DNA of 54,754 nt from Methylotenera sp. GTDB lineage: Bacteria > Pseudomonadota > Gammaproteobacteria > Burkholderiales > Methylophilaceae. The position numbers and the translations under genes are program-made. Each line of letters begins with the position of its first letter. Within the stretch, counting starts at the first letter, position 1. The notes under the pieces were generated by a model. The model saw only the letters and a list, made by a program, of their open reading frames with translations, was not told the origin of the DNA and did no database searches. The stretch spans positions 1 through 54,754 of the forward strand of contig JANXWL010000133.1 in assembly GCA_025351225.1 (NCBI GenBank), written 5' to 3'. Positions 10,359-42,769 of the stretch are shown in pieces.

Positions 10359-10360
10359 AG

Positions 10361-13336: not shown

Positions 13337-13348
13337 AAAATGAACTTG

Positions 13349-13903: not shown

Positions 13904-13909
13904 ATTGAT

Positions 13910-20020: not shown

Positions 20021-20132
20021 TAAAGCTCACATTTATTTTTGCATTTATTTTTGATTGAATGTTCACTATTCAATGAGGTATACTAATCAGTATATATTTC
20101 ACCTATTAACTTTTAGTTTGAAAAGGCTCATT

Positions 20133-21962: not shown

Positions 21963-22110
21963 GTGAGTAAAGCATAAAGATTGTAAAGCAGTAACTTTAA
22001 TCTAAACTTGCCTCAATGCTTGTGTAAATTATGGTGAAGTTTGCGCGCAGAGATGTGTTTAGCGATGCCGAGATGATAGAATCTAATTTATATCATTGTA
22101 TTTTAATTGC

Positions 22111-23694: not shown

Positions 23695-23728
23695 TCGTAA
23701 TAACAATCAACTTTGTAGAGATAAACCT

Positions 23729-24880: not shown

Positions 24881-24934
24881 GCCAATATAAATTCAATATA
24901 AATTTAAGTCACATAAATTAAGCTACTGTAAATA

Positions 24935-27900: not shown

Positions 27901-28024
27901 ATTCTTAAGTTTGTTGGTGATTCCGTCTGTATTTAGTTTTATTGATGATTTTAAATTGTTGTTCAAGAAGCTGTTTGTGCATAACACGCAACGGCGATCT
28001 GCTAGCAAGACTGTTATTAAGTAA
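24935..28024 (+). CDS. RND efflux permease (AcrB/AcrD/AcrF family)
   Basis: 1029 aa. Proton relay GILVDDAIVEVEN and ATKNSILL, RARPIVMTT. Confidence 0.95.
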   Translation: MNISAWCIRNPIPAIMLFVMLCFAGMLSYQSMKVQNFPDLDLPTVSVTASLPGASPSQLETEVARKIENSIATLQGLKHIYAKVQDGVVTITAEFRLEKPVQEAVDDVRSAVSQVRADLPSDVRDPEISKLNVAGTPILSYTISAGNMDEEALSWFVDNELTKKLLGVKGLGRVTRVGGVNRQITVDLDPAKLQALNATVADISRQLKLTQLEAAGGRTKIGGSEQPVRTLATVNSAEDIANMEISLSDGRKITLNQVAAINDNFAEPRSAAFLDGKPVVGFEIARSKGASEIEVGEGVQKVFADIKQKHPDVVLTEAFNFVQPVKDEYNASITMLIEGALLAVLVVFLFLRNIRATFICAVALPLSVIPAFIGMASFGFSINVVTLLALSLVIGILVDDAIVEVENIVRHLRMGKTPYQAAMEAADEIGLAVVATTFTLIAVFLPTAFMSGIPGKFFKQFGWTASFAIFASLAVARVLTPMMSAYLLKPNNTQHEDGFIMRAYMRMSHWCLHHRLITVIAAALFLFGSIKLIPLLPTGFIPADDSSQTQVYLELPPGATLAETEQSAEASRQLLKNVAHVKTIYTAIGGGSAGSDAFASSGAAETRLATLTILLDERGERPRKQAIESEIRDTLVGLPGVRTKVGLGGSGEKYILMLSGDDSNELQQASDAVTQDMRGISGIGNIASTASLIRPEMIVRPDFAKAADLGVTSSAISETLRIATNGDYDFDLTKLNLSQRQIPIVVQLSDEARQDQSILERLTVPGAKGPVMLSQVASFNMAGGPSVIDRYDRSRNVQIEVELSGLTLGEVTEAVKKLPSIQNLPASVKQVEIGDAEVMTELFGSFAIAMLTGVLCIYIVLVLLFKDFLHPFTILVALPLSLGGAFVALLVAHKSFSMPSLIGLVMLMGIATKNSILLVEYAILAQREHGLNRFDALMDACHKRARPIVMTTIAMGAGMLPIAAGWSAGDTSFRSPMAVAVIGGLMTSTFLSLLVIPSVFSFIDDFKLLFKKLFVHNTQRRSASKTVIK

Positions 28025-28048: not shown

Positions 28049-29509
28049 CTAAGTAGTTAGGCGTTTAAAGCTTAGCATTACTTTTAGGCCGCGCTGTGTT
28101 GGCTTGGTAGACAGCGTTCCATTCTCTATAATGCTATCTGCAATGCTGATACTTGCACCATGTAAACTGGCAATTTCTTTTACAATTGCCAGCCCAAGTC
28201 CGCTGCCAGTTTGCTCGCTTGCGCCTTGGCGGTTGTCGAGCACGCGGTGAAAGCGATCAAATATTTTATCTTTTTCCGTATCGCTCACACCAGGTCCGTT
28301 ATCTTCGACGATTAAATTCACTAATGTTTCAGATACATCTAAAGCCACTGTGATTTTCCCGCCAGTTTGCGTATAGCGAATGGCGTTATCGATTAAGTTA
28401 TTCAGCAAGTCGCTTAACCTATCAACATTGCCAAGAATCATTGCTGGCACTAGGCTAGGCTCAAACCCTAAATCAATTTGTTTCTTAAGTGCAGACGGTG
28501 CAATTTCGAGCGCAATGTCTTTAGTAAGCGTGTTCAAATCAAGTCTGACCATACTCACCGTTGCTGCAGCTTCTGGTTGGCTGCGCGCCAATACTAATAA
28601 TTGGTTAATCGTGTGTAATAGCTTATCTAGGCTTTGATAAGCGCGCGGTAGCAGCGCTCTTACTGCCGCTGGCTCTACTTCTTGCTCGGCTAGCTCTAAT
28701 TGCGCTTGTGCGCCTGCAAGTGGCGTTCTAAGCTGATGTGCAGCATCCGCCACGAAGCGATTTTGCGCAGAAATTAAGTTTTGCAGCTTATGCATGAGTT
28801 GATTCACCGCATTGGCCACCAGCGATACTTCTTGGGGGATATTGGGTAGCTCAATTGGGCTTAAATCTTGATCAGAGCGTTTTAGCAGTGCATCTTGCAA
28901 GGCGTCTAAAGGTGCCAACCCCCTTTCAACGCCAAACCAAATAATAAAAAATGACAGTAAAGCCAACAATAGTTGTGGCACAACGATGCCCACCAAAATA
29001 GTATTCGTGAGCGTCTCACGCCATTTTTGCGTGCCTGCAATTTGTATGGTGATGGCTTGCGTGCCTTGCGAATTGCTAATATTAAAGACTGCATGCACAA
29101 CCCGAAAATCCTCATTGGCGATTATGGTGTCGTAGTAGTAATGGGCTGGGTGGTGTTTATCATCATCGCTATCATCTAGCTCAATTTGTTTAGCGTTTTG
29201 CAACGCTCTGCTTCCACTTAGTAACTGGCCTTGGCTATTACTGATGCTATATAAGATTTTATCTACTTCGTCTTTTAAAAATACGTGGCTAGCATTTTCT
29301 AGCAAACGAATATCTTTGGGGGCGCTACCGAAATTGCTTAAAAATTGTGAAACATCTTTGGCTGACGCAAACAAATCTGCATCCAATTCTTTTTCTAGTT
29401 TATCGATGGCTAGCTTAAATAGTATCGTGCTATCGACCAAAATCAGCAGCAATAGCAATGGGATTAACCAGCTGAGTAATTTTCTGCGTAGAGAAGCTTG
29501 TTTTTTCAT
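28049..29509 (-). CDS. Sensor histidine kinase (TctE/QseC-like)
   Basis: Two TM helices, H-box DAAHQLRTPL, N-box NLIDNAIRY, DNGPG and GSGLGLAI. Confidence 0.93.
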   Translation of the reverse strand: MKKQASLRRKLLSWLIPLLLLLILVDSTILFKLAIDKLEKELDADLFASAKDVSQFLSNFGSAPKDIRLLENASHVFLKDEVDKILYSISNSQGQLLSGSRALQNAKQIELDDSDDDKHHPAHYYYDTIIANEDFRVVHAVFNISNSQGTQAITIQIAGTQKWRETLTNTILVGIVVPQLLLALLSFFIIWFGVERGLAPLDALQDALLKRSDQDLSPIELPNIPQEVSLVANAVNQLMHKLQNLISAQNRFVADAAHQLRTPLAGAQAQLELAEQEVEPAAVRALLPRAYQSLDKLLHTINQLLVLARSQPEAAATVSMVRLDLNTLTKDIALEIAPSALKKQIDLGFEPSLVPAMILGNVDRLSDLLNNLIDNAIRYTQTGGKITVALDVSETLVNLIVEDNGPGVSDTEKDKIFDRFHRVLDNRQGASEQTGSGLGLAIVKEIASLHGASISIADSIIENGTLSTKPTQRGLKVMLSFKRLTT

Positions 29510-29513
29510 TTGC

Positions 29514-30206
29514 TTATTCTTTTTGATCAAATTTTTCTAGGTCTAATTTTTCTAGCAAATAACCCAAGCCACGTACTGTGCGCACCTCGATGCCAACTTG
29601 CAACAGTTTTTTGCGTAGCCGATGCATATAGACTTCAATCGCGTTGCTACCAAGGCTGTCATCCCAATCGCTAATATTGCCCAGCAAGCTTTCTTTACTC
29701 ACTACTTTGCCAACGCGAATTAACAGGGTTTCTAGCAAGCTAAATTCGCGTGGTGATAATGCAAATGGCTCGCCAAGATAAGTCACCAAGCGTTCTTTTA
29801 TGTGCAAAGTCAGCGGCGAGTATTCAATAGTGACGGCGCTCATCGCGTGTTTGCGGCGAATTTGCACGCGTAAGCGAGCGGCCAGTTCGGGTAGTTTAAT
29901 GGGTTTAATTAAATAGTCGTCCGCACCTAAATCAAGCCCAGCAATACGGTCTTCTAAGGCATCACGTGCAGTTAAAATAATCACGCTGGTATCAAGTTTT
30001 CGCGCACGCAGGCGTTTTAGCACGCTTAAACCATCCATTTGCGGCAGACCAAGGTCTAAAATGACCACTTCATAGAGGTCTTCGTGCAAAGCCAAATCGG
30101 CTTGCTTGCCATCTTGTACCCAGTCAACCGCATAGCCGTTATTACGCAGATAAACGCTGGTGGCGTTGCCTAAAATGCCGTCGTCTTCTACCAATAAAAT
30201 TCGCAT
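29514..30206 (-). CDS. OmpR-family response regulator (TctD/QseB-like)
   Basis: MRILLVEDD, ILDLGLP phosphoacceptor, GADDYLIKP, winged helix IEVYMHRLRKK...TVRGLGY. Confidence 0.94.
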   Translation of the reverse strand: MRILLVEDDGILGNATSVYLRNNGYAVDWVQDGKQADLALHEDLYEVVILDLGLPQMDGLSVLKRLRARKLDTSVIILTARDALEDRIAGLDLGADDYLIKPIKLPELAARLRVQIRRKHAMSAVTIEYSPLTLHIKERLVTYLGEPFALSPREFSLLETLLIRVGKVVSKESLLGNISDWDDSLGSNAIEVYMHRLRKKLLQVGIEVRTVRGLGYLLEKLDLEKFDQKE

Positions 30207-30225
30207 ACTCGAATCATGCCGCAAT

Positions 30226-30258
30226 TGTAAGGAAAATGTAAGGCTTAACGTTTAGATT
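30226..30258 (+). promoter_or_regulatory. Direct-repeat operator TGTAAGG-N4-TGTAAGG plus -10-like TAGATT
   Basis: Repeats at 30226 and 30237 (11-bp period). TAGATT at 30253, 9 nt after the box. Confidence 0.75.
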
Positions 30259-30400: not shown

Positions 30401-31255
30401 ATGAAAAAATCTCACCTCACTCTTTTTGCTCATAGCTATTGGGATACGGTTCCCGTGTTATGGGGCATTTTGCATTTTGCCTATTTAATCGGCATGCTCG
30501 CGGCATTTCATTATCTGCCGTGGTGGGGCAACATGCTTACAGGCTTGTTTTATGCCTTTAGTATTTCGTGGAACGTGAATAGCGTATCGCATAACTTTAT
30601 TCACAATGCTTACTTTAAATCTAGCGTATTAAATCGCGCATTTAGCTTGCTAGAATCCATCACCATGGGCTTTTCGCAAACCATGTACGATCATGTGCAT
30701 CGCCAGCATCACATCGGTAACAACGACCGTATTGGCGAAAATGGCGAAACGGTTGATTGGATTTCTATCTACCAACATGGCGAAAACGGTGCGCCAGAAT
30801 CGGCTTTAAGGTACTCATTTTTAAGCTTTTTTCGCGATGATCCAAAACGTATTGTGGCTGGCATTCGCCGCTTAAACCCGCTTTTAGCAGAGTTTGCTTG
30901 GTTTGAGCTATCGGTAGTAGTTTTAATGTTCATTACACTATTTTTAATTAGCTGGAAGCTGGTTTTGTTTTTTGCGGTATTCCATTATTTGGGTCACTCG
31001 CTTACTGCTATGAATGGCTATTACGAGCATTTTGGTGCGAATCCAGACAAGCCAATCGCATGGGGTGTAAGCTGCTATAACCCTCTATTTAATTGGCTTT
31101 GGCTCAATAACGGTTATCATGCCGAACATCATTTTCGCCCTAAACATCACTGGACAAAAATGCGCGAGTTACACCTGCAAATTGCCGATAAACAGATTGC
31201 GGCGGGCGTAAAAGTGATTGCCTGGCCACACCAAATTGGGTTTTTGGCTAAATAA
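30401..31255 (+). CDS. Membrane fatty acid desaturase/hydroxylase family protein
   Basis: His boxes HNFIH, HRQHH and NNGYHAEHH, TM helices. Confidence 0.85.
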   Translation: MKKSHLTLFAHSYWDTVPVLWGILHFAYLIGMLAAFHYLPWWGNMLTGLFYAFSISWNVNSVSHNFIHNAYFKSSVLNRAFSLLESITMGFSQTMYDHVHRQHHIGNNDRIGENGETVDWISIYQHGENGAPESALRYSFLSFFRDDPKRIVAGIRRLNPLLAEFAWFELSVVVLMFITLFLISWKLVLFFAVFHYLGHSLTAMNGYYEHFGANPDKPIAWGVSCYNPLFNWLWLNNGYHAEHHFRPKHHWTKMRELHLQIADKQIAAGVKVIAWPHQIGFLAK

Positions 31256-31294
31256 GCCTGAAAGCCGCTCCAAATAAGGCTTTATCTCTCGAAC

Positions 31295-31327
31295 TGTAAG
31301 CAAACTGTAAGCTAGGTTTATTAAAAT
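31295..31327 (+). promoter_or_regulatory. Direct-repeat operator TGTAAGC-N4-TGTAAGC plus -10-like TAAAAT
   Basis: Repeats at 31295 and 31306 (11-bp period). TAAAAT at 31322, 9 nt after the box. Same geometry as 30226-30258. Confidence 0.75.
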
Positions 31328-31369
31328 GCATATCATTATGTGATTGAGTATATAAACCTAAGGAGCCTA

Positions 31370-32071
31370 ATGCTTTTTATCATCGATTTTGACGGTACAC
31401 TTTCAGTAAAAGACACGATAGACGACATGCTTGAGCACTTTGCCGACCCCAGTTGGGAAGATATTGAGCAATCATGGTTAAATGGCGAAATTAACGCCGT
31501 AGAGTGCATGACGCAGCAAGTGCGCATGGTTAAATCTGATAACATCACCTTAGAAGGATTCTTTCGCGGCATTCAACTAGATGCGACTTTTGTGCCGTTT
31601 TATAAGCACATCAGCCAATTTGCCAAGGTAGCCATTGTAAGTGATGGCCTTGACCATGCAGTTAAAGTGGCCATGCGTAATGCCGCTATGCCAGATATTC
31701 CCGTGTATGCCAATCACTTACACTTTACGCCAGATGGCTTGGATATTAGCTTCCCTAACAAAGTTGAAGGTTGCGCAGGCGGCAACGGCACTTGCAAGTG
31801 CGCCATTGCACAAAATCTCTCGCTAGAGTCTAGCGGGGCTTTTGGTGCTGGTGGCCCAGTGGTACTAATTGGCGATGGTAAATCGGATGCTTGCCTTGCA
31901 GGTCGCGCTGATATTGTATTTGCTAAAGGTTCGCTCATTAAACATTGCGAGAAAAACAATATTCAGCACCACAATTTTCAAACCTTTGCCGACGTTTTGG
32001 CAAAAGTGAAAACTTGGCCGCAAAACTTACCACAAGTTAAGCCACAAAAGGTGGCCAGCTTGCGCGCATAA
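31370..32071 (+). CDS. HAD-IB phosphatase (MtnX-like)
   Basis: DFDGT, IVSDG, CKC and IGDGKSD motifs. AGGAG before ATG 31370. Confidence 0.88.
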   Translation: MLFIIDFDGTLSVKDTIDDMLEHFADPSWEDIEQSWLNGEINAVECMTQQVRMVKSDNITLEGFFRGIQLDATFVPFYKHISQFAKVAIVSDGLDHAVKVAMRNAAMPDIPVYANHLHFTPDGLDISFPNKVEGCAGGNGTCKCAIAQNLSLESSGAFGAGGPVVLIGDGKSDACLAGRADIVFAKGSLIKHCEKNNIQHHNFQTFADVLAKVKTWPQNLPQVKPQKVASLRA

Positions 32072-32089
32072 TGATTCAAATTTAATTAC

Positions 32090-32126
32090 TTAACTATAAT
32101 TATTTAACTACTTAACTATTTAACTA
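32090..32126 (+). repeat. Four copies of TTAACTA in an AT-rich intergenic spacer
   Basis: Copies at 32090, 32104, 32112 and 32120. Confidence 0.6.
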
Positions 32127-32147
32127 CAAACTAAAAAGGTTTTTTGC

Positions 32148-33521
32148 ATGGACGCCAAAATTATCGAGATTTTAAGAAAAAACGACAAATATTGCTCTCA
32201 TGGCGATACGGTGAATTATGCAGACCCACCAAAAGTATTTGAAGATTGCCAAGGCAGTTTTTTATTCGATGAAAATAAAACACCGTATTTAGACTGGCAA
32301 ATGTGGTATTCAGCAGTTAATTTTGGCTATAAAAACAAACGCTTAAGTGATGTCCTTCATAAACAGGTTGATACTTTACCACAGCTGGCTAGCCAATATT
32401 TGCATAAAGAAAAAGTCGATTTGGCTGAAATTATTTGTAAATACATGGAAGACAAATATGGCGAAAAAGGCCGTGTACATTTTAATGTGGGTGGAGCGCA
32501 GGCGGTAGAAGACTCTCTCAAACTGGTGCGTAATCACACGGGAAAAACACACCAATTTGCGTTTATGGGTGGCTACCATGGTCGCACCCTAGGTGCTTCT
32601 GCGATTACCTCTAGTTTCCGCTATCGCCGCCGTTTTGGCAACTTTGCAGATCGTGCAGAATTTATACCTTACCCCTATTGTTACCGTTGTCCTTACGACA
32701 TGAAAGTGGAAACTTGCGATACGTATTGTCACAAGCAGTTTGAAAAACTGTTTGAGACCGAATACCAATCTGTTTTAGATGTTAAAACTAATGAAAGCGA
32801 ATTTGGGGCATTTTACATCGAGCCTATGCAAGGTACTGGCGGCTATATTATTCCGCCTGAAGGCTATATGGCTAAGCTACAAGCCAGCTTGAGAAAACGC
32901 AATATCTTATTAGTTGCCGATGAAATCCAAATGGGTGTGTACCGCACAGGCAAGCTGTGGTCTTGGGAAAACTTTGGTATCGTACCTGACGTGTTTGTGT
33001 TCGGCAAGGCCATTACCAACGGCCTAAATCCATTATCTGGCATTTGGGCAAAAGAAGAATACATTAACCCAGAAAAATTCCCGCCAGGTACTACACACTC
33101 AACGTTTGCATCAAATCCATTGGGTACGGCTGTAGCGCTTGAAGTGCTTAAAATGACGGCTGAGGGCGATTTTGAGGCGCAAGTAAATGAGCGTGGCGCG
33201 TACTTTCTAAAAGCGATTCAAGGCCTTAAATCACGCTGGAAAGTGGTTGGCGATGTGAGTGGCTTAGGTTTAGCTTTGCGTATTGAGTTGTGTACAGAAG
33301 ACGGTTTTACTGCAAGCCGTCAATTAGCCGATAGAATGTTTAACGAAGGCTTAAAAGGTGATATTGATATTGGCGGAAAAATGTACGGTTTGGTGCTGGA
33401 CATTGGCGGTTACCAAAAAAATGTGATTACACTGGCACCTTCTTTGTTAATCACCAATGATGAGATTGATTTAGGCATTAAACTGTTTGAGGCTTTATTA
33501 AAACGCTGTGGTGCTTGCTAA
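32148..33521 (+). CDS. Class III PLP-dependent aminotransferase
   Basis: GGYHGRT, IEPMQGTGG, VADEIQMGVYRTG, FGKAITNG (PLP Lys) and THSTF. Confidence 0.92.
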   Translation: MDAKIIEILRKNDKYCSHGDTVNYADPPKVFEDCQGSFLFDENKTPYLDWQMWYSAVNFGYKNKRLSDVLHKQVDTLPQLASQYLHKEKVDLAEIICKYMEDKYGEKGRVHFNVGGAQAVEDSLKLVRNHTGKTHQFAFMGGYHGRTLGASAITSSFRYRRRFGNFADRAEFIPYPYCYRCPYDMKVETCDTYCHKQFEKLFETEYQSVLDVKTNESEFGAFYIEPMQGTGGYIIPPEGYMAKLQASLRKRNILLVADEIQMGVYRTGKLWSWENFGIVPDVFVFGKAITNGLNPLSGIWAKEEYINPEKFPPGTTHSTFASNPLGTAVALEVLKMTAEGDFEAQVNERGAYFLKAIQGLKSRWKVVGDVSGLGLALRIELCTEDGFTASRQLADRMFNEGLKGDIDIGGKMYGLVLDIGGYQKNVITLAPSLLITNDEIDLGIKLFEALLKRCGAC

Positions 33522-33539
33522 GCCAAGTATTGATAAGCC

Positions 33540-34421
33540 ATGCAAGGCATCACGATATTTAATGTTGACGGCAGTGTGACCGCACAAAAAGATTTTTTGC
33601 AGCGGTTCTCTGCCAAAATTAATATAAAATCGTTGCTATCGTTCAAGCGCATGGCACGACTTTGGTGCAGTGCAAGCGAATTCAAGCGCGTGAGCAGTGC
33701 CATGCAGCTGCCAAATCTCAATCAGTTTGCGCTGTTAGGTTCTGGTGATTATCACCATCTCACCTTAGCTTTGTTGCAACAACATCAAGCGCCACTTACT
33801 TTAGTGTTGTTTGACAACCATCCTGATTGGATACGTCCACCACATCAATATCACTGCGGTACATGGATTTACGCTGCAGCGCGCTTGCCGCAAGTGGCGC
33901 GTATTGTCATTGTGGGTTTGGAAAATGGCGATTTGTGCGGTAAAAAGTTTCAAGACGGCGATGTTGAAAGCTATTTAAACAAAAAAATTGTGTTGCTACC
34001 TTACACAGCCGTCGAAGTGACTATTGGCGCGGAACAAACCGTGCAATTACAATCGCAACTTAAAGCCAGTCTAAAAGCAGGGGTGCAAGAGATTTTAAGC
34101 CATATTGCAACCCAACATGTGTATGTGAGTGTCGACAAAGATTGTCTGCGCCTCGATGATGCTATCACCAATTGGGAGCAGGGTACGCTGCCGCTAGAAA
34201 CGGTAACAGCCTGCATTGCCGCCATCCGCAATAATCATATAATCGTGGGTGCAGATACTGTCGGTGATTATTCGCCGCCCATATTTAATTCGCCACTTAA
34301 ATGGATTGGCTCATTTTTAGATAGGCCTGCCAATGCTTGGCGAGTGCAAACTAATTCACAAGCCAATGCTGTAAATGCTGCCGCAAATGTTAAAATAGCA
34401 CTCGCACTAGGGCTGATCTAA
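33540..34421 (+). CDS. Ureohydrolase (arginase/agmatinase) family protein
   Basis: GSGDYHH, FDNHPD, HCGTW and SVDKDCL metal-binding motifs. Confidence 0.8.
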   Translation: MQGITIFNVDGSVTAQKDFLQRFSAKINIKSLLSFKRMARLWCSASEFKRVSSAMQLPNLNQFALLGSGDYHHLTLALLQQHQAPLTLVLFDNHPDWIRPPHQYHCGTWIYAAARLPQVARIVIVGLENGDLCGKKFQDGDVESYLNKKIVLLPYTAVEVTIGAEQTVQLQSQLKASLKAGVQEILSHIATQHVYVSVDKDCLRLDDAITNWEQGTLPLETVTACIAAIRNNHIIVGADTVGDYSPPIFNSPLKWIGSFLDRPANAWRVQTNSQANAVNAAANVKIALALGLI

Positions 34422-34459
34422 ATGCTAAATATTGTCCAAATCATAGTGGCGCAGCATTA

Positions 34460-34840
34460 ATGTTGTTTAGTGTTAAAGCATTGATGTTATTTGCAATTGC
34501 TATGGCATTTGATACGGCAGGTAATTTGCTATTAAAGCTTGGTATGAATGATTTCACAGCCTCTAGCTTACCGATTTGGCGAGGGCTTTTGGCTAATGTT
34601 AAACAGGTTATTGCTTCAAAAATTTTAATATTAGGCGCGCTAAGCATGGTGTGCGAAGCAATTGTGTGGTTTGCGTTTTTATCCATTACGCCACTAAACG
34701 TAGCGGGGCCAATGGCTAGTGCGAATAATGTGTTTATTTTATTGGCCTCTAGTTGGTTGTTAAAAGAACACGTCACAGCAAAACGCTGGCTGGGCGTTGG
34801 TTTAATTATCACTGGCATGCTGTTTGTGGGCAGTGTGTAA
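34460..34840 (+). CDS. Small 4-TM EamA/SMR protein (ArnE/ArnF-like)
   Basis: 126 aa, four hydrophobic helices, LLKEHVTAKRWLGVGLI. Confidence 0.8.
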   Translation: MLFSVKALMLFAIAMAFDTAGNLLLKLGMNDFTASSLPIWRGLLANVKQVIASKILILGALSMVCEAIVWFAFLSITPLNVAGPMASANNVFILLASSWLLKEHVTAKRWLGVGLIITGMLFVGSV

Positions 34841-34867
34841 ATTTGGCTTAAATTTAAGATTAATACA

Positions 34868-35767
34868 ATGAGAGTAAACGATTTGCAAAAACAAGATCCA
34901 GTGATGCCCATTGATGCGTTATTAGGCGAGGTTGGTTTTATTGAGCGCAAAGGTAAGTCAGGCGTGCTGCTGGTGCATGGCCTTACTGGCACACCCACTG
35001 AGATGAAACAATTTGGTAAAGTCATCGCGCGTCAAGGCTTTACTGTGGCTTGCCCCGAGCTGGCAGGGCATTGTGACAGTATTGAAGCGCTCACCGCTAC
35101 CAAATGGAGTGATTGGTATCACTCGATTGAGGTGGCGTTTGACGCGCTTAAACAAGAGTGCGAGCATGTATTTATTGCTGGGCTTTCTATGGGTGCACTG
35201 ATTGCGCTATTGGTGGCCGCTAAGAAAAAAGACCAAGTCGCAGGTGTTATTTTACTTTCCACCACATTTTTTTATGATGGCTGGAATGTGCCAATATTTA
35301 AGCAAAAGGTATTGTTGCCGCTAGTGCTATATAGCCCGCTAAAATACTTTATGCAATGGGAAGAAACCTCGCCCTACGGCATTAAAGATGAGCGCACTCG
35401 CGCTTTAGTGCATGCAATTTTAGAAAATCGCGATTCACAAGCTGCCGATAAAATTGGTTATTTTAAAACACCCGCCACCGTTATTTTGGAAAGTGTGCGT
35501 ATGATTAAAGCCGCTAAAAAGTCGCTAAAAGATGTCATTTCGCCCGCCTTAATTGTGCATTCCACCGAAGATGATATGGCTAGCTTAAAAAACGCGTATT
35601 ACACGCAGGCCAATATTGCCTCTAAAACGGTTGAAACGTTTTTTGTGGATGATACCTATCATGTGTTGACGCTGGATAAACGCAAAGATGATGTTGCACG
35701 CCGTGCTGCACAGTTTTGTAAAGAACAAGTGCAAAAACTCAATTTGCCCATGCCCGTTCAAGCCTAA
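34868..35767 (+). CDS. Alpha/beta hydrolase (carboxylesterase/lipase-like)
   Basis: HGLTG oxyanion motif, GLSMG nucleophile elbow, EDD and YHV triad positions. Confidence 0.88.
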   Translation: MRVNDLQKQDPVMPIDALLGEVGFIERKGKSGVLLVHGLTGTPTEMKQFGKVIARQGFTVACPELAGHCDSIEALTATKWSDWYHSIEVAFDALKQECEHVFIAGLSMGALIALLVAAKKKDQVAGVILLSTTFFYDGWNVPIFKQKVLLPLVLYSPLKYFMQWEETSPYGIKDERTRALVHAILENRDSQAADKIGYFKTPATVILESVRMIKAAKKSLKDVISPALIVHSTEDDMASLKNAYYTQANIASKTVETFFVDDTYHVLTLDKRKDDVARRAAQFCKEQVQKLNLPMPVQA

Positions 35768-35799
35768 AATGTTGTTTAAAAATTAAGGACTTACAAGAG

Positions 35800-36069
35800 A
35801 TGACAACACCCAGTAACACAACGCCAAGTTTAGAAGAAATTTCAATCGTTCTGGCCAAAATGATTGCCGATAAAATGGAAATCGACGTGGCAACGATTAC
35901 ACCAACTAGCAACTTAACTGAGCTGGGGCTTGATTCGCTTGATACTTTCGATATTATTTTTAATGCCGAAGATCACTTTAAAATTAAAGTGCCAAATGAT
36001 CAAGTGAACATTGAAACGCTGCAAGATGTGACGGCTTTAGTGCATAAACTTATTCTAAGTCAGCAATGA
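35800..36069 (+). CDS. Acyl carrier protein
   Basis: Acidic 89-aa protein with LGLDSLD phosphopantetheine site. Confidence 0.9.
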   Translation: MTTPSNTTPSLEEISIVLAKMIADKMEIDVATITPTSNLTELGLDSLDTFDIIFNAEDHFKIKVPNDQVNIETLQDVTALVHKLILSQQ

Positions 36070-36087
36070 TAAGGCCCAACAAAAATA

Positions 36088-37338
36088 ATGGTTAATGCTC
36101 ATAAGCGCGTTGTTGTTACAGGTATGGGTGTTGTGTCGCCTATTGGTAATGGTCTTGCTGAACTTTCAAAACAAGTGTTTGCGGGCCTTTCAGGCATAAA
36201 AAAAATCGATGCACCGTTTGTTGAGCAGCTTAGTTGCAAGCTGGCCGCGCAAGCCAACTTTGATCCCGCCGCATATTTCAGCAAACATACTTACTCAATG
36301 TTAGACCGCACCAGCCAAATGGCGTTACACACTAGTATAGAGGCGGTTAAGCATGCAGGTTTAAGTGTTAATGAGGCTTTGCAACCACGTATGGGCGTGT
36401 ATCTTGGCACTGGCATGGGTGGCGCTAGCTCGGTTGAGGAGGGTTATGTGCGCCTGTTTAAGGACGGCGCAAGCCGCTTAAAACCATTTACCGTGCTAAT
36501 GAGTATGAATAATGCCGCGGCTTCTGCAATTGCGCTTGAGTTTCAAATCACGGGTCCTAACCAAACGTTTTCGACCGCATGTTCGTCATCTGCTGTGGCG
36601 ATTGGTGAAGCTGCACGCCTCATTCGCCATGGTTATGCCGATGTAATGTTAGCTGGCGGCGCAGAAGCGCTATTGACGTTTGGCACGATTAAAGCTTGGG
36701 AAGCTTTGCGCACGCTTGCAGACGAAGACCAAGTCGACGTGAGCCGTTCATGCAAGCCATTTTCGTTAAACCGCTCAGGCTTGGTATTGGGTGAGGGAGC
36801 AGCGATGCTAGTACTAGAGTCGCTAGAGCACGCACAAGCTCGCGGTGCGACTATTTACGCTGAGCTTGCTGGTTACGGCTCGGCTAACGACAGCGGCCAC
36901 ATTACACAGCCATCCGTCAAAGGTCAATTAGCGACCATGCAAGCAGCCTTGAGTGATGCTAATTTGCCACCGCAAGCCATTGAATACATTAATGCACATG
37001 GTACAGGCACGGTGATGAACGATGCGACTGAAACCAACGCTATCAAGCAAGTGTTTGGTGAGTATGCGTATAAGTTGAGTGTTAGCTCAACCAAAGGCGC
37101 GCATGGTCATTTAATGGGTGCAGCAGGCGCGTTAGAGGCAGTGATTACTTTGCTAGCGCTTAATAGCAACACGCTGCCGCCAACCATTAACCTCGCGCAG
37201 CCAGACCCTGCTTGCGATTTGAATTATGTGCCAAACACCGCTAAAACCTTGCCTAGTTTAGATTGCGTGATGAGTAACTCATTTGCGTTTGGCGGCACAG
37301 GCGCAGCACTTATATTTAAAAAACTGTCTTTAAAATAA
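36088..37338 (+). CDS. Beta-ketoacyl-ACP synthase (FabF-like)
   Basis: RVVVTGMG, TACSSS, NAHGTGT, GHLMGAAG and SNSFAFGG (Cys-His-His triad). Confidence 0.93.
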   Translation: MVNAHKRVVVTGMGVVSPIGNGLAELSKQVFAGLSGIKKIDAPFVEQLSCKLAAQANFDPAAYFSKHTYSMLDRTSQMALHTSIEAVKHAGLSVNEALQPRMGVYLGTGMGGASSVEEGYVRLFKDGASRLKPFTVLMSMNNAAASAIALEFQITGPNQTFSTACSSSAVAIGEAARLIRHGYADVMLAGGAEALLTFGTIKAWEALRTLADEDQVDVSRSCKPFSLNRSGLVLGEGAAMLVLESLEHAQARGATIYAELAGYGSANDSGHITQPSVKGQLATMQAALSDANLPPQAIEYINAHGTGTVMNDATETNAIKQVFGEYAYKLSVSSTKGAHGHLMGAAGALEAVITLLALNSNTLPPTINLAQPDPACDLNYVPNTAKTLPSLDCVMSNSFAFGGTGAALIFKKLSLK

Positions 37339-37384
37339 CCTTTTTTAATATAACTGACTTAAAAAATTAGCTTAAATTTCTCGC

Positions 37385-38515
37385 ATGCAATATACCGCAA
37401 ACTACAGCCCGTTTTCTGCGGATAACGCCATAGCGGATATTGCTGCTTGGCAAGCCTTGTTGCCACAATCCTTAGAGGCCTATCACTATCATTTAGCTTT
37501 TGCACAAGCCAATATTGAAGGCTTTAAAACGGGCTATATCACGGTTTTTTCAGAAGTAAAAGCCGTATTTATCGCGCCTGTTTTTGTAATGGATTATGCG
37601 CTAGACACCACCGTGCAAGGCAAGCTAAAAACCTACACCAGCAAGCTACGTAGTTTGTTTCCAAAGCTCATGTCATTGCGCTTGTTGTGCGTGGGTTCTG
37701 CGGTAACAGATTCTGCGCAGATTGGTTTTAATAGCCAGTTAAATGCTGAAATTATTCATACACTTAATCAAAAACTAGAGGAAATCGCCTCAATAGAAAA
37801 AGCCAGTATCATTGCGTTTAAAGATGTGACGGAAGCCGATTTAGCGCAGCTAAAGTCGCCCTTGCAAGGTTTTGGTTTTAGTGTAATTGATAATATGCCT
37901 GTGGCTAAAAATACAGTTCACTTCAATAGTTTAGATGATTATTTAGCTAGTGTTAGTTACAGTACACGCAAAGGTTTGCGCCGCAAAATGAAAAGCTTTT
38001 CGCAATTGCGAATTGAAGAACACAATGGCATGCCACCTCAACTGGCCGAAATTGTTCAGCTATACTTAAATTGTTATGAAAAAAGTGAGCTAAAATTTGA
38101 AAAACTCACGCAAGATTTTTTTGAAAATCTGGCTAAACTTATGCCGAATAACTGCCGATTTGTATTGTATTATTTTGGTGAAAAAAATGAAGAAAAACTG
38201 ATAGGATTCAATTGCTTACTATATGGGAATGGCGTATTAATGGATAAATATATCGGCCTTGACTATGCCAAAAGTTTAGATGTAAATTTGTATAGTTTAA
38301 GTTGGCTGCATAACATTAGTATGTGTATCCGCGATGGTTTTCACACTTTTCAAAGTGGGCAAGCAGCGTATGAAACCAAGTTGAGCTTAGGAGCGACTTT
38401 AGAGCAAACTTATATCGTGTTTAAACATCGCAATCGTTTGATTAATCCATTCTTAAAGCTTGCCTCACGCGTACTAGCGTATGGCAATTTTGATGCTGCT
38501 TTAAAAACACCATAA
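37385..38515 (+). CDS. GNAT-fold protein, FemAB/BioF2-like
   Basis: SLDDYLAS...TRKGLRRK, KYIGLDY and GQAAYETKLSLGA, consistent with the tandem-GNAT family. Confidence 0.7.
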   Translation: MQYTANYSPFSADNAIADIAAWQALLPQSLEAYHYHLAFAQANIEGFKTGYITVFSEVKAVFIAPVFVMDYALDTTVQGKLKTYTSKLRSLFPKLMSLRLLCVGSAVTDSAQIGFNSQLNAEIIHTLNQKLEEIASIEKASIIAFKDVTEADLAQLKSPLQGFGFSVIDNMPVAKNTVHFNSLDDYLASVSYSTRKGLRRKMKSFSQLRIEEHNGMPPQLAEIVQLYLNCYEKSELKFEKLTQDFFENLAKLMPNNCRFVLYYFGEKNEEKLIGFNCLLYGNGVLMDKYIGLDYAKSLDVNLYSLSWLHNISMCIRDGFHTFQSGQAAYETKLSLGATLEQTYIVFKHRNRLINPFLKLASRVLAYGNFDAALKTP

Positions 38516-38527
38516 AAGAATAAATAT

Positions 38528-38935
38528 ATGCAGATTAAAAAGTTATTAAGCCCACAAGTGGTTGTTTTAATAGCACTATTATTGCTGTTTGATACCTTTG
38601 CGCAGCTGGCATTTAAAATCGCGGTTACGCAATTAGGCGAGTTTCCTACTCAAAATATCAGGGTGATTTGGCATTATTGCTTGCAACTTGCAACTAATCT
38701 CTATGTGATTGGTGGCGTGTTGGCGCTCATATTGGCGCTGTTTACATGGCTAACACTTATTTCAAAGGTGGATTTAAGTTTTGCCCACCCCATGACATCG
38801 CTGGCTTATGCGACTATTCCGCTTGCGGGTACATTTTTTCTACACGAGCCGTTACATTGGCCACAAATGGTAGGAATTGCGTTGATTGTGATTGGCGTTA
38901 TTGTTATTTCAGACGACGAAACCACACATAAATAA
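38528..38935 (+). CDS. Small 4-TM EamA/SMR protein (ArnE/ArnF-like)
   Basis: AQLAFK, VDLSFAHPMTSLAY, FLHEPL...GIALIVIGV. Confidence 0.82.
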   Translation: MQIKKLLSPQVVVLIALLLLFDTFAQLAFKIAVTQLGEFPTQNIRVIWHYCLQLATNLYVIGGVLALILALFTWLTLISKVDLSFAHPMTSLAYATIPLAGTFFLHEPLHWPQMVGIALIVIGVIVISDDETTHK

Positions 38936-38987: not shown

Positions 38988-39803
38988 CTAAGACCCAGAA
39001 ATAAAGCTTAGTTTATTCAAAACTGGTAACTTGCTTAAAAGCTTGATGATTGGTGCAGTTAACCGTTCTAATAAGTATTGCGCTCTAGCAACATACGGTG
39101 TGTAAAACCCCCAGCCAAACGCCATTAAGCTTAAAAATGCACCGCCTACAAATACGTCGCTGCCCCAATGTGCGCCAGCAATAAGCCTTGGTAGCACGTA
39201 CAAAATCGTCAGCAGCCACACAAAAAACAAAGCCTTGCCGCGTGCAAAATACAGCAGCATGGCCGTCCAAATAAATAAAACTGATGCATGATCTCCAGGA
39301 AAGCATTGTTCCGAACTATCTTTTAGCGCCCATTGTTGCTCCCAGCCTGGGAATAGCGTGGTGAGGCGCACTGCGCCATCGACTACTAAAGACGGGCTTG
39401 CGCGCTTCCATTGTAATAGTTTGAGTACTTGATCAAGCAAGGCAATGCGAATTAACAGCATGAGCAATAGTAGAGCTAAAAACGCATACAGCGCGCGTCT
39501 CACTTGTGCACCACTAAATATGAAGTCACCTTTTATAATTGTGACTAGCATGACTAAGCCGATGGCAGCATCAACTGGGCGCATATTGCCAATGGCCCAA
39601 ATCGTCGCCCAAATAGGGTGGTTGGCTAGCGGTGCATTAAGAAAGTGAAATAACCAGCCATCAAACGCATCCCACAACTGTCGTGTAGGCTGCCACAGCC
39701 AGCTAGCCATTAATAGAAACGCAATCACATTGCAAATAATCAACTTGCGCCAGCACCAGCGTGCTTGGGCTAATTGAGAGCTTTCGAAGGTGTTTGTTTT
39801 CAT
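38988..39803 (-). CDS. PAP2-family phosphatase/phosphotransferase, LpxT-like
   Basis: KRASPS, FPGDH and PRLIAGAHWGSD, the PAP2 motif variants I recall from LpxT/YeiU. Confidence 0.78.
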   Translation of the reverse strand: MKTNTFESSQLAQARWCWRKLIICNVIAFLLMASWLWQPTRQLWDAFDGWLFHFLNAPLANHPIWATIWAIGNMRPVDAAIGLVMLVTIIKGDFIFSGAQVRRALYAFLALLLLMLLIRIALLDQVLKLLQWKRASPSLVVDGAVRLTTLFPGWEQQWALKDSSEQCFPGDHASVLFIWTAMLLYFARGKALFFVWLLTILYVLPRLIAGAHWGSDVFVGGAFLSLMAFGWGFYTPYVARAQYLLERLTAPIIKLLSKLPVLNKLSFISGS

Positions 39804-39809
39804 TCTGTA

Positions 39810-40769
39810 CTAGCTTTCAATATTTTTCATTGGCCGTTTTTCAATAGTAGGGTGGCGACCTTTTAAATAGGTGACAAGGCCTGGCAGGCTAACAATAATC
39901 AGTGTAAGACCATATAGCAATGACATCATCAGCACGGCGGTTTTGTCGGCGCCGATGAGCGAAAACAAGCCTACCAGCGCGCCTTCGCGAACGCCCCAGC
40001 CCGCGACTGATATTGGCACAACAGTGAGTACCAGTGCGGGAGGCACTAATGCGAAATAAGTCATTAAGCTGTATTCTAAGCCTAGCGCCCAACCTGTGGC
40101 AAAAAAGCCGAGTAGCGCCAAAAAAGGAATCAGCAGTGAGGCGGTGACCAGCAAAAAACGCTGTGAGAATAAGGCTTGGTGTAATCTCTCAGCAATGATG
40201 CTGATAATAGCGAGCTTAGGATAGCGACTAAGCCAAGTGAAGTATTTTATAAAAAAGATACTAAAAAAGCCCAGTGCGCCTATGGAGATGATTAGTAAAA
40301 TAGGGCGATGTACTTGTTTTGGCAATAAGTCTGGGTTCAATAAATAAGCAAGCAAGGTCAGCGACATGAGCGCACCAAGACCGATAATGCGATCGACCAT
40401 GACGCCGTACAGTGCATCTCGCTTACGAAAGCCACGGCTAGCGACATCGAGCATACGCACAGCATCGCCACCGATACTGGTTGGCAGGCCTTGATTAAAA
40501 AACATGCCTTTAAAATAACTACGCCAATAAAACGCAAAGTTTTGCCCAAAATGTAAATTTTGCATAATCATTTGCCAGCGATAAGCCGAAACGGCAGTAC
40601 TGCCAAATTGCAGCATTAGGGCGGCTGCCAGGTAATCTAAGCGTGTTTTCTTTAGCACTTGTAACACTTGCGCGGCGTTGATAGAACGCGTAATTAGCGT
40701 AAGAATAAATACAGTAGCTACAACGCGCAACAAAAACTTGATTGAGTTATTAGAGATAATAGAATGCAT
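39810..40769 (-). CDS. Lysylphosphatidylglycerol-synthase TM / flippase-like protein (UPF0104)
   Basis: RWQMI, FFNQGLPTSIGGDAVR and PISVAGWGVRE. Confidence 0.82.
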   Translation of the reverse strand: MHSIISNNSIKFLLRVVATVFILTLITRSINAAQVLQVLKKTRLDYLAAALMLQFGSTAVSAYRWQMIMQNLHFGQNFAFYWRSYFKGMFFNQGLPTSIGGDAVRMLDVASRGFRKRDALYGVMVDRIIGLGALMSLTLLAYLLNPDLLPKQVHRPILLIISIGALGFFSIFFIKYFTWLSRYPKLAIISIIAERLHQALFSQRFLLVTASLLIPFLALLGFFATGWALGLEYSLMTYFALVPPALVLTVVPISVAGWGVREGALVGLFSLIGADKTAVLMMSLLYGLTLIIVSLPGLVTYLKGRHPTIEKRPMKNIES

Positions 40770-40774
40770 TTTAC

Positions 40775-42769
40775 TTAATCGCTGCCATTATCATCGGTTG
40801 GTAGTTGGCCTGATTTACCAACACTTGGTTTACCAATATAATTGCCGACCAATCGGTAGTAATAAGTGCCCGTTTGCTTGCCATTTTTCCATGTGCTAAT
40901 GGTTTTAATTTCGCCGATTGGTGTTGAGCGCGATAATACCATTACACTATTGAGTTCATCCATTTTTTCGCCAACTAACAACATGGTTTTAGCATTTTGT
41001 TGCGCGGAGGGAAACCAAAACTCATACATCAAGGCGCCCACACCGAATAAATGGCCGCTAGCTGTATCTAATGCGGGTTGGCGCGTAGTTTTAGTACCCG
41101 AATTGGCAATGACTTTGTTACGATAAAACGCCAAACCGCTGGCAATTTTGTTTCTATCCATGGCCACGACTAATATGTTCTCGTCTCTCTCTTTTTCTAG
41201 TTGCGTCACAAGGCTTTCAATTTCTGTTGCAAAGCCTGCATAACCCATTAAATGAGTGTTTTGCGGATATTTTGTCAGTGGTAAGCCAAGGCTTAAATAG
41301 TGTAAACCTGCGCCGTAAATCAGCATTAAAATCATCACAGTAACTGGCCATGCACGGGCGCTCCAAGTCAATAATTTAGGTGAATTTACATCCACTTTTT
41401 GCGGGCTTGTATTTTGTGAAGCCAGCAATGCTAAAAATGGAATTAAGCCGAGCCAGCACGGGCCTGTCCAGTTGAGTTTGCTAGCTCTAAATAAGCTTAA
41501 GCTGGCAAAAACAGCAATAGGGAATAGTGTCAACCAAGCTAATACAAAATAGCTGCGGTTTAGGTTGTTAGCCGCATCAATACTGGTTTGCAGACGTGCG
41601 AGAATTATTTTTTTGTACTTAAGCACGGCAATAAATGACATCACGCCAATAGGTGTAATAAAAATCAGCACGTTGCTGATAAAGCGTGGCAAGGAAAAAT
41701 GATTGCTGCTAGAAACCCTACCTTCGCTTTGAAAAGCAAACGACGCCCATGCATGTTGCATATTCCAAATTATCACGGGCGAAAATAAAATGCAGGTAAT
41801 CAGTAGCGCAAAATAGGGCTCTCGCCGCATGAGCCATTTTCTGGAATCCTTATCTATTAGCAAAAATAGCACCATTGCGCCGCCAAGCAGGGCAATGGTG
41901 TATTTAGAAATCATACCCAAACCAAGCGCGATACCAACGCCAAACCATGCTTTTTTATTGCCTTTAACTATCGCTTGGTGAAAGTAATAAATAGCTGCCG
42001 CCCAACAGGCAGTAAGCGGCGCATCGGGGCTCATAAACCAGCCAAATGAGAAGTAGGCAGGCAATACTGCAAGCAGCACCAGCGCCCAGTACGCGCTGGC
42101 TTCATTGAGTATTTCGCGTGTGAGTTTAAACACATAACGCGCGGTGATAAACCAGCATAAAAATGCGCCAATGCGCACAGCAAACTCGTTATCACCCAAT
42201 ACAAAAGTAAACGCTTTGATAATCCACGCCACCATCAGTGGATGGTCTAGGTAGCCAATATCCAAGTGCTGCGCATAATTCCAATAGTATGCCTCCTCAA
42301 AAATCAGCTCGGGCGCGCCTAAATAAAACAATTTAAGCAGCGTGAGATAAATCAATACCGCGATGCACCAATACTTCCATTTAGTGTCAACGTTTGTACC
42401 AATAAATTGAATGTATTGATAACCAAAAACAAGCGTTGCAGCAGAAAATAGCGCACAAATACACATGGCGGCAAGTACTGGCATTATCGTTACGAGGGAT
42501 GCTAGCAAGCCACCCCGCAGCAACAGTGTGAGCAAAGCGATTAGTAGAAAGGTGAGTAGTTGTGTTGGTTTAATTTTTAGCGCTATTAAACCAGCGATAG
42601 CAGCGCATAAAAAGCTTGTCAAATGTGCCGAAGCAAGAGAGTGCGCTTGTTGATTTAAAACATAAAATAACACAACATCAATTGCAGCCACCAATAAGCT
42701 TATTATTAATAATTGCGAGCGATTAGCAGATGTGAGGAAATCTGCTTTAAATAGACTATTCAGATTCAT
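40775..42769 (-). CDS. ArnT/PMT-like GT-C glycosyltransferase with extra N-terminal membrane (GtrA-like) segment
   Basis: EEAYYW, YLDHP, PDAPL, GMISKY and PVIIWN motifs, many TM helices. Confidence 0.82.
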   Translation of the reverse strand: MNLNSLFKADFLTSANRSQLLIISLLVAAIDVVLFYVLNQQAHSLASAHLTSFLCAAIAGLIALKIKPTQLLTFLLIALLTLLLRGGLLASLVTIMPVLAAMCICALFSAATLVFGYQYIQFIGTNVDTKWKYWCIAVLIYLTLLKLFYLGAPELIFEEAYYWNYAQHLDIGYLDHPLMVAWIIKAFTFVLGDNEFAVRIGAFLCWFITARYVFKLTREILNEASAYWALVLLAVLPAYFSFGWFMSPDAPLTACWAAAIYYFHQAIVKGNKKAWFGVGIALGLGMISKYTIALLGGAMVLFLLIDKDSRKWLMRREPYFALLITCILFSPVIIWNMQHAWASFAFQSEGRVSSSNHFSLPRFISNVLIFITPIGVMSFIAVLKYKKIILARLQTSIDAANNLNRSYFVLAWLTLFPIAVFASLSLFRASKLNWTGPCWLGLIPFLALLASQNTSPQKVDVNSPKLLTWSARAWPVTVMILMLIYGAGLHYLSLGLPLTKYPQNTHLMGYAGFATEIESLVTQLEKERDENILVVAMDRNKIASGLAFYRNKVIANSGTKTTRQPALDTASGHLFGVGALMYEFWFPSAQQNAKTMLLVGEKMDELNSVMVLSRSTPIGEIKTISTWKNGKQTGTYYYRLVGNYIGKPSVGKSGQLPTDDNGSD

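Follow-up and report, generated by a model that had tools for sequence, protein, structure and literature searches.

The ten-gene cassette and its two-component system

The DNA analyzed here is a stretch of 54,754 nucleotides from Methylotenera sp. (contig JANXWL010000133.1 of assembly GCA_025351225.1; hereafter the window), in which an initial annotation had described an uncharacterized ten-gene cluster for amino-lipid-like biosynthesis. In agreement with that description, the list of open reading frames (ORFs) contained ten co-oriented ORFs on the + strand at 30401-38935, and Pfam and NCBIfam profile matches backed the family label given to each of them. The catalytic motifs, which had also been read as intact, proved so wherever we checked them across the cassette enzymes by sequence and alignment. 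The functional unit extends beyond the ten genes to include a divergent two-component system at 28049-30224. The features of the unit are as follows, with counts referring to the 85 comparison loci described in the next section.

28049..29530, - strand: sensor kinase with a 2CSK_N domain (Pfam; in 55 of 85 loci)
29514..30224, - strand: OmpR-family response regulator, divergent from the cassette (Pfam; in 56 of 85 loci)
30226..30243, + strand: direct-repeat box YGTAAG-N5-YGTAAG, copy 1, predicted regulator site (top-scoring site of its own genome)
30401..31255, + strand: membrane fatty-acid desaturase, optional add-on (PF00487, E 1.7e-23; His boxes intact)
31295..31312, + strand: direct-repeat box, copy 2, between desaturase and HAD (second-best site genome-wide)
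31340..32071, + strand: MtnX-like HAD-IB phosphatase, core (Pfam and NCBIfam; probable start 31370)
32148..33521, + strand: class III pyridoxal phosphate (PLP) aminotransferase (Aminotran_3, PF00202), 457 aa, core, replaceable (Pfam)
33540..34421, + strand: ureohydrolase (Pfam Arginase; arginase/agmatinase fold), optional (intact metal ligands)
34460..34840, + strand: small EamA protein, ArnE-like (Pfam EamA; best NCBIfam match ArnE, below cut-off)
34868..35767, + strand: alpha/beta hydrolase (Hydrolase_4) of the bacterial monoacylglycerol-lipase family, core (Pfam; PDB matches)
35800..36069, + strand: dedicated acyl carrier protein (ACP; PP-binding), optional (Pfam, NCBIfam; DSL motif)
36088..37338, + strand: FabF-like ketoacyl-ACP synthase (KAS), optional, traveling with the ACP and the hydrolase (Pfam, NCBIfam; TACSS and HGTGT motifs)
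37385..38515, + strand: tandem-GNAT transferase of FemX/aminoacyl-phosphatidylglycerol synthase (aaPGS) fold (FemAB_like/Acetyltransf_6), 376 aa, core at genome level (Pfam, fold model)
38528..38935, + strand: small EamA protein, ArnF-like (Pfam EamA; best NCBIfam match ArnF, below cut-off)

The HAD phosphatase probably starts at the ATG at 31370, inside the annotated ORF and preceded by AGGAG at 31361, and its DFDGT, SDG and GDGxSD motifs are intact. It scored 102.5 bits against the MtnX equivalog of methionine salvage (cut-off, 292), and its neighbors are cassette genes with no mtn context. We rejected a foreign island as an explanation for the cluster, since its GC content (0.38-0.49) is like that of the window and no tRNA is present. 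Scans for sigma-70 promoters and terminators gave matches at chance level only.

The direct-repeat box, which has an 11-bp period, was analyzed in 43 regulator-cassette intergenic regions delimited by ORF calling, namely that of the window and those of 42 of the 85 loci. GTAAG-N6-GTAAG was found in 33 of the 43, always on the cassette strand; in 100 dinucleotide shuffles, the count averaged 0.02 and never exceeded 1. The window's own genome (2.0 Mb) contains 8 exact sites, and the two that score best are those before the desaturase and before the HAD gene. The presence of a box before the HAD gene as well as before the desaturase fits a desaturase added in front of an older unit. The adjacent two-component regulator would bind the predicted box and likely switches the cassette on. 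A search at a score of at least 13 turned up no box in 25 more distant cassette loci, beyond the fetched Methylophilaceae-type set, or before the orphan ArnT-like genes of loci L155-L158, and the literature searched did not identify the box. Elsewhere in the window's genome, the box precedes genes for small Ala/Lys-rich, probably secreted proteins at G000:C22:12744 and G000:C113:16652, the latter site being divergent from another response regulator. Genes for MipA/OmpV recur near cassette loci, and one study places a MipA/OmpV gene in a polymyxin-induced regulon of Burkholderia thailandensis (PMC9426598). By that analogy, these neighbors may point to envelope stress, which is only a hint.

Conservation and modular composition

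The 85 loci were fetched by the aminotransferase and comprised the best 80 of 132 genome-contig matches and 5 of 34 plasmid records. Many of them are cut by contig ends. A separate Pfam scan covered 18 of 25 neighbor ORFs. The locus and genome counts come from related, nonindependent genomes and thus describe co-occurrence rather than test it. As the initial annotation had anticipated, the genes co-occur in other genomes; the gene-neighborhood comparison found this to be far beyond chance and to span alpha-, beta- and gammaproteobacteria. The HAD phosphatase was present in 82 of the 85 loci, the hydrolase in 78, the ACP and the KAS in 63 each, the GNAT in 49, the two EamA genes in 34 and 40, the ureohydrolase in 32 and the desaturase in 12. 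A DegT-family enzyme that is absent from the window occurred in 20 loci. The HAD gene lies directly 5' of the aminotransferase gene in most loci, and in several lineages the aminotransferase, GNAT and ureohydrolase form one unit and the HAD, hydrolase and EamA genes another.

At the genome level, we detected the aminotransferase in 28 of 400 other sampled Pseudomonadota genomes (~7%), 27 of which also encode the hydrolase, and in 45 of 151 genomes of the family Methylophilaceae, with only 1 of 10 other genomes of the window's own genus among the carriers. A cluster-type GNAT was found in 42 of the 45 aminotransferase-positive family genomes (the three misses being genomes that are 72-81% complete) compared with 8 of 106 aminotransferase-negative ones. 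All 16 family genomes with the ureohydrolase also have the GNAT and the aminotransferase. Where the GNAT gene is not next to the aminotransferase gene, it mostly lies in a satellite EamA-EamA-(DegT)-GNAT unit. On the basis of these genome-level counts and satellite units, the GNAT and the EamA pair count as core components. The core therefore consists of the HAD phosphatase, the class III aminotransferase, the monoacylglycerol-lipase-like hydrolase, the Fem-fold GNAT and the EamA pair. The ACP and KAS, the ureohydrolase, the desaturase and the DegT enzyme are optional, and the window holds a rich Methylophilaceae version.

This division modifies two parts of the initial annotation. The proposal that the ACP and KAS build an acyl chain was not supported in the form given, both genes being optional and missing from the rhizobial, Rugosibacter, Roseomonas and Aureimonas versions. 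The desaturase had been listed among the genes of the cluster and is better described as an add-on, given its occurrence in so few loci and the second regulatory box behind it. Two tandem desaturase genes lie 5' of the HAD gene at loci L015, L017, L029 and L046. Carriers of the cassette include cultured Methylophilus, Methylovorus and Rhizobium strains as well as Xanthomonas and Roseomonas, and the cassette is kept on a chromosome of 1.27 Mb (L052).

Enzymes of the cassette

The PLP lysine of the aminotransferase (Lys287) is intact. The closest relatives, at up to 96% identity, are from Methylotenera and other Methylophilaceae, and the enzyme belongs to a tight, separate subfamily: beyond five sister proteins (37-43%), near-full-length matches are about 36% identical or less. 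A PDB sequence search with the aminotransferase returned no match at 1e-50. Residues R146, R158, R160, R162, T230, K287, K424 and T428 are invariant in all 112 distinct homologues. The nearest solved enzymes have Glu at position 230 and Arg at position 428, where this aminotransferase has Thr at both; the Glu/Arg pair forms the switch that binds the amino-acid donor. From its sequence, the arginine patch together with the threonine pair would suit a substrate with one distal anion.

Plasmids of Roseomonas and Aureimonas carry HAD, hydrolase, GNAT and EamA genes and a ureohydrolase-like gene. The search with the window-type aminotransferase did not list these plasmids (they are plasmid records, with the host chromosomes outside that search). 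They carry instead a divergent gene annotated as glutamate-1-semialdehyde (GSA) aminomutase. Its product is 23% identical to the window aminotransferase and does not reach the hemL equivalog cut-off; on plasmids it has 13 relatives that are at least 70% identical. Genome G218, which has an ACP-KAS-HAD-hydrolase arrangement and no window-type aminotransferase, encodes this substitute at 72% identity. The same query found only a HemL-like gene at 39-40% identity in G377, G279 and the window's own genome and no match in G188. In Roseomonas and Aureimonas, the place of the aminotransferase is taken by an unrelated, GSA-aminomutase-like enzyme.

The catalytic triad of the alpha/beta hydrolase (Ser107-Asp235-His265) is intact, its best PDB matches are bacterial monoacylglycerol lipases (E 1e-31) and its N-terminus has no evident signal peptide by sequence and hydropathy. 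Of 100 homologues scored, 10 have Cys as the nucleophile. The alpha/beta hydrolase OlsI is reported to be the O-acyltransferase of one amino-lipid pathway (PMC12493201), and by analogy the cassette hydrolase is probably an acyltransferase. The ACP is acidic, with 14 Asp and Glu against 5 Lys and Arg. Stand-alone hydrolase-ACP-KAS triads were present at 4 of 8 sites examined (L164:5965-8311, L168:5825-8152, L170 and L171); these have no aminotransferase or HAD gene, and three adjoin two-component genes. Such triads represent a minimal unit for an acyl product that has had no description so far. Plasmids of Caballeronia and Paraburkholderia carry a relative of the cassette hydrolase in the absence of the cassette, in DUF4118-hydrolase-MipA/OmpV triplets (L161:7156-9610 and L163:7300-9807).

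Searches of PDB sequences gave no match for the GNAT transferase or the ureohydrolase, and both were compared through structure models. The GNAT matched only PF04339 and PF13480 at E <=0.01 and no NCBIfam family. Its model (predicted local distance difference test, or pLDDT, 93) was closest in a fold search to FemX (Z 22.7; root mean square deviation [rmsd] 4.8, 308 residues aligned), followed by Sbb17 (Z 21.9; 3.0, 273), FemA (Z 21.6; 5.3, 300), the lysyl-phosphatidylglycerol synthase L-PGS (Z 19.4; 4.0, 276) and the soluble domain of MprF (Z 18.4; 4.0, 267), all of them ahead of the other tandem GNATs, which reached Z 17.5 at most. The protein also has a conserved basic helix (S191-R195-K196-R199-K201). 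These features of the model suggest that the transferase probably uses aminoacyl-tRNA. In genus g256, at the five loci examined (L142:4957-7238, L143-L145 and L154), the GNAT gene is followed downstream by a small hypothetical gene and a gene for an OlsA-like acyltransferase.

The metal ligands of the ureohydrolase (H72/H73, D92, H94, D96, D199 and D201) are invariant in 28 of 28 aligned proteins, in an alignment used for folding that left out L130 as well as L131, whose row was in the wrong frame. Its model (pLDDT 92) scored Z 17-22 to arginases and agmatinases versus about 12 to deacetylases, with an arginase domain as the best match (Z 22.4; rmsd 2.6, 232 aligned), and the protein is only 10-20% identical to solved members. 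A 74-row GNAT tree resolved three deep clades, in which the ureohydrolase is present in 0 of 23, 22 of 22 and 20 of 29 loci; the window falls in the third. As long branches connect two of these clades, the tree serves here for clade membership alone. Such tracking of GNAT clades by the ureohydrolase is as expected if it acts on the product of one transferase. The idea in the initial annotation that a product is aminoacylated and then trimmed by the ureohydrolase gained ground, in that the modeled folds of the two proteins favor aminoacylation and subsequent de-guanidination. Against NCBIfam, the EamA pair scored 45.6 bits for ArnE (cut-off, 92) and 49.1 bits for ArnF (cut-off, 99).

Candidate product, alternatives and known pathways

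The product of the cassette is likely a positively charged membrane lipid that ends in an amino acid and whose structure has not been described. What the analysis shows directly are the genes, their intact motifs, folds and co-occurrence, the displacement of the aminotransferase and the conserved box; the substrates, the order of steps, the product and the signal set out here are inferred, as follows. The class III aminotransferase would aminate a triose phosphate, most likely dihydroxyacetone phosphate (DHAP), to give serinol phosphate, and the HAD enzyme would take off the phosphate before or after acylation. The lipase-family hydrolase, acting as an acyltransferase, would attach, as an ester, a fatty chain carried by acyl-ACP; in the window, the dedicated ACP and KAS would provide this chain, with optional desaturation. 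The Fem-fold GNAT would then add a tRNA-borne amino acid, probably arginine in the clade of the window, which the ureohydrolase would trim to ornithine, and the EamA pair would carry the lipid across the inner membrane. In this full form, an O-acylated, phosphorus-free serinol-type lipid whose arginine is trimmed to ornithine and which is flipped by the EamA pair, our preferred reading is a tentative one.

An O-acyl lipid of serinol type is suggested by the distal-anion substrates of the aminotransferases, the near-constant phosphatase, the glycerol-monoester family of the hydrolase and literature precedents. In the substrates of both aminotransferase branches, the carbonyl lies three to four bonds away from an anionic group, and DHAP would be an isostere of those substrates, 5-aminolevulinate (ALA) and succinic semialdehyde. 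As for precedents, DHAP to serinol phosphate to serinol is described as a natural route (PMC3222319), omega-transaminases are reported to aminate dihydroxyacetone (PMC12666128), and an aminotransferase and an acyltransferase were suggested in silico to make palmitoyl serinol in the gut (PMC12169038).

Several observations weigh against this reading. RtxA, the known DHAP aminotransferase, is described as a phosphoserine aminotransferase (PMC12666128), so that its precedent extends to the reaction alone. Tandem GNATs that use CoA scored Z 15-17.5 against the GNAT model, so that a Fem fold is no proof of tRNA use. All ten genomes of genus g256 encode a cluster-type GNAT, seven of them without the aminotransferase, and the GNAT can thus have another acceptor. 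The DegT enzyme has no role in the proposed pathway, and no lipid has been described for the carrier organisms in the literature searched. Finally, two observations favor a beta-amino-acyl product: the branch of the substitute aminotransferase also holds the aminotransferase domain of the mycosubtilin synthetase MycA and beta-transaminases, and a short-chain dehydrogenase/reductase (SDR) gene lies near only 5 of 104 cassette loci despite the KAS/ACP pair.

If the product were a beta-amino-fatty-acid lipid, the class III enzyme would aminate a beta-ketoacyl-ACP from the KAS and ACP or from housekeeping synthesis, the hydrolase would move the 3-aminoacyl chain to glycerol phosphate, the HAD enzyme would dephosphorylate it, and the GNAT and the ureohydrolase would place arginine and then ornithine on the 3-amine. 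The MycA domain does aminate a beta-ketoacyl-ACP, the arginine patch of the aminotransferase could dock the acidic ACP, and the lineages with separate aminotransferase-GNAT-ureohydrolase and HAD-hydrolase-EamA units fit such a division of labor. Set against this are the versions that lack the ACP and KAS, the position of the HAD gene directly before the aminotransferase gene in most loci, and hydrolase-ACP-KAS triads in three genomes with neither aminotransferase type, G377 and G279 (checked for both types) and G238 (checked for the window type only). We regard this route as possible and as close behind the serinol reading. Its product would still be a cationic envelope lipid, and it is rather probable that one or the other of the two, each a free cationic aminoacyl lipid, is correct. 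The lipid A substituent that the initial annotation had offered as another outcome came out weaker. Such a group would be assembled on undecaprenyl phosphate and, once the ArnE/F-like pair had flipped it, passed to lipid A or lipopolysaccharide (LPS) by an unlinked ArnT-like enzyme. The EamA pair has ArnE and ArnF as its best, below-cut-off matches, the DegT enzyme of 20 loci has the ArnB fold, an undecaprenyl-diphosphate phosphatase gene adjoins the Roseomonas cassette, and ArnT-like genes occur in 39 of 45 aminotransferase-positive versus 21 of 106 negative family genomes. The window's own genome has an orphan ArnT-like gene, whose orthologue at L157 stands beside lipoprotein/LPS transport-type genes, directly upstream of what we take to be lipoprotein-release and ExbBD-type genes. 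No ArnT-like gene, however, was found in the 104 cassette loci with two queries, and an ArnC-like family 2 glycosyltransferase (GT2) was found in 2 of 104 with one. The orphan ArnT orthologue follows the cassette only loosely, with 24 carriers among the 45 positive genomes and 10 among the 106 negative ones, six positives (four at 96-99% completeness) have no ArnT-like match at 1e-20, and the GT39 operon beside the window's cassette adjoins it in just 3 of the 85 loci. Overall, a lipid A or LPS substituent appears improbable. The orphan ArnT-like genes at L155:6198-7850 and L157:6458-8122 had no GT2 neighbor that we could see.

The cassette might also make an exported small amphiphile (a signal, surfactant or antimicrobial aminoacyl-amide) rather than a structural lipid. 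Exporters of the HlyD/ABC/FtsX/TolC or resistance-nodulation-division (RND) types and MipA/OmpV genes recur beside it, some versions end in a sensor kinase and a sigma-54 regulator, small-molecule tRNA-dependent synthases (Sbb17/Sba18) ranked second in the fold search, and the distribution is patchy even within the window's own genus. We nonetheless find an amphiphile unlikely, as the EamA proteins resemble short flippases of the ArnE/F kind, the exporters are inconstant (AcrB-like in 20 of 85 loci) and the cassette is retained on the 1.27-Mb chromosome. A sphingolipid-like route without serine palmitoyltransferase, in which the class III enzyme would condense acyl-ACP with an amino-alcohol phosphate, the GNAT would N-acylate like a bacterial ceramide synthase and the desaturase would act on the base, could account for the missing Glu/Arg pair of amino-acid transaminases, the tandem GNAT fold and the optional desaturase. 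It is very improbable, as it leaves the ureohydrolase without a role and lacks a conserved reductase (the 5 of 104 loci above), and as the substitute is GSA-aminomutase-like and the top folds of the GNAT are tRNA-dependent transferases. Equally hard to credit is catabolism or detoxification of cationic or amino lipids by an esterase, a phosphatase, a deaminating transaminase and a ureohydrolase, with efflux. Four of the ten enzymes do come from hydrolytic or deaminating families, but the ACP and KAS in 63 of 85 loci and the Fem-fold transferase tied to the aminotransferase are biosynthetic, and the hydrolase has no evident signal peptide.

Bacteria are known to make cationic envelope lipids by only a few routes, namely MprF, Arn and the ornithine lipids. 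The initial annotation could not match the gene combination to a pathway, and we likewise found no description of it in the literature searched (expression and fitness tables under locus tags being outside its scope); cluster look-ups of cassette proteins gave generic names only. The 'hbs' operon of Burkholderia BesRS was rejected as a prior description, as the entries in its supplement include HpnK/HpnJ but none for MtnX, an arginase or EamA. The cassette is not a member of the MprF, Arn, Ols, Hpn, Spt or Rtx systems, and it probably works like MprF-type lipid aminoacylation. The aaPGS enzymes (L-PGS and the alanyl enzyme A-PGS) and the Fem proteins share the tandem-GNAT fold of the cassette transferase, and the probable product of the cassette is, like theirs, a cationic aminoacyl lipid. 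In contrast to MprF with its fused LPG_synthase_TM flippase domain, the cassette GNAT is a stand-alone, soluble protein of GNAT domains only, served by an EamA pair and accompanied by an aminotransferase, a phosphatase, a lipase-family enzyme and a ureohydrolase. With these extra biosynthetic enzymes beside the GNAT, the cassette probably builds its own acceptor. With the Arn pathway for 4-amino-4-deoxy-L-arabinose (L-Ara4N) it shares an optional DegT/ArnB-fold enzyme and an adjacent two-component system of 2CSK_N type. Its EamA pair may be ArnE/F-like, at scores far below cut-off, and the linked ArnT and ArnC-type GT2 of Arn are absent or nearly so at the 104 loci, with no GT2 among the ten genes.

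The ornithine-lipid enzymes OlsH/OlsI, in which an alpha/beta hydrolase is reported to act as an O-acyltransferase (PMC12493201), offer a possible parallel, and an ornithine-tipped product is possible for the cassette too. The OlsB-type or GH3 N-acyltransferase domain of the OlsBA, OlsF and OlsHI pathways is absent from the ten genes by Pfam and NCBIfam, and the cassette's ornithine would derive from tRNA-borne arginine and be joined via its carboxyl group. Rhizobitoxine synthesis by RtxA resembles the proposed route in that DHAP is aminated and then dephosphorylated, as set out in PMC3222319, and the rtx cluster also has a desaturase. RtxA is an aminotransferase-sulfhydrylase fusion of about 800 aa, whereas the cassette enzyme stands alone at 457 aa. 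Homology to RtxA or a comparable fusion partner was not supported, no relative of the window aminotransferase of 801-2285 aa appearing at 1e-40, which is weak evidence; the single 765-aa match is an NDK-like fusion at 33% identity. MycA, too, combines a class III enzyme with a ketosynthase and an ACP, and its branch holds the substitute aminotransferase; the cassette differs in having stand-alone genes, no nonribosomal peptide synthetase, and an optional ACP and KAS. The hopanoid aminotriol (HpnO) route was rejected, no squalene-hopene cyclase turning up in any of the 5 aminotransferase-positive genomes checked, of which four are 99-100% complete. Bacterial sphingolipid synthesis depends on the alpha-oxoamine synthase Spt, in contrast to the PF00202 class III PLP enzyme here.

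A new class of phosphorus-free, O-acylated serinol with arginine or ornithine in amide linkage, made via arginyl-tRNA and a lipid-acting arginase, is a possibility that we put forward with reserve. If correct, it would represent a further class of lipids and show arginyl-tRNA and an arginase at work on a lipid, and ornithine-bearing lipids would have a source unconnected with OlsBA, OlsF or OlsHI. One step would have drawn in two class III enzymes that are not related to each other, in a pathway spread over ~7% of Pseudomonadota, from freshwater methylotrophs with 1.3-Mb chromosomes to rhizobia, Xanthomonas and Roseomonas. The conserved box and the adjacent regulator offer a way to switch the cassette on, and the natural variants with and without the ureohydrolase, the KAS and the desaturase predict shifts in product mass.

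Other genes of the window lie on both sides of the unit. Convergent with it on the - strand (38988-44025) is an operon for a family 9 glycosyltransferase (GT9), a GT39/PMT_2 membrane transferase, an LPG_synthase_TM protein and PAP2, probably a separate LPS-modification unit; we considered it as a partner of the cassette and set it aside on its count of adjacent loci. An RND efflux set (outer-membrane factor, fusion protein and AcrB; 22096-28024, + strand) converges on the sensor kinase gene. At 9105-16923 (- strand) there is another lipid-modifying cluster, which encodes a flavin oxidoreductase along with two methyltransferases of cyclopropane-synthase type, and a gene for a pyrroloquinoline quinone (PQQ)-dependent alcohol dehydrogenase, as expected of a methylotroph, lies at 20055-21908 (+ strand).

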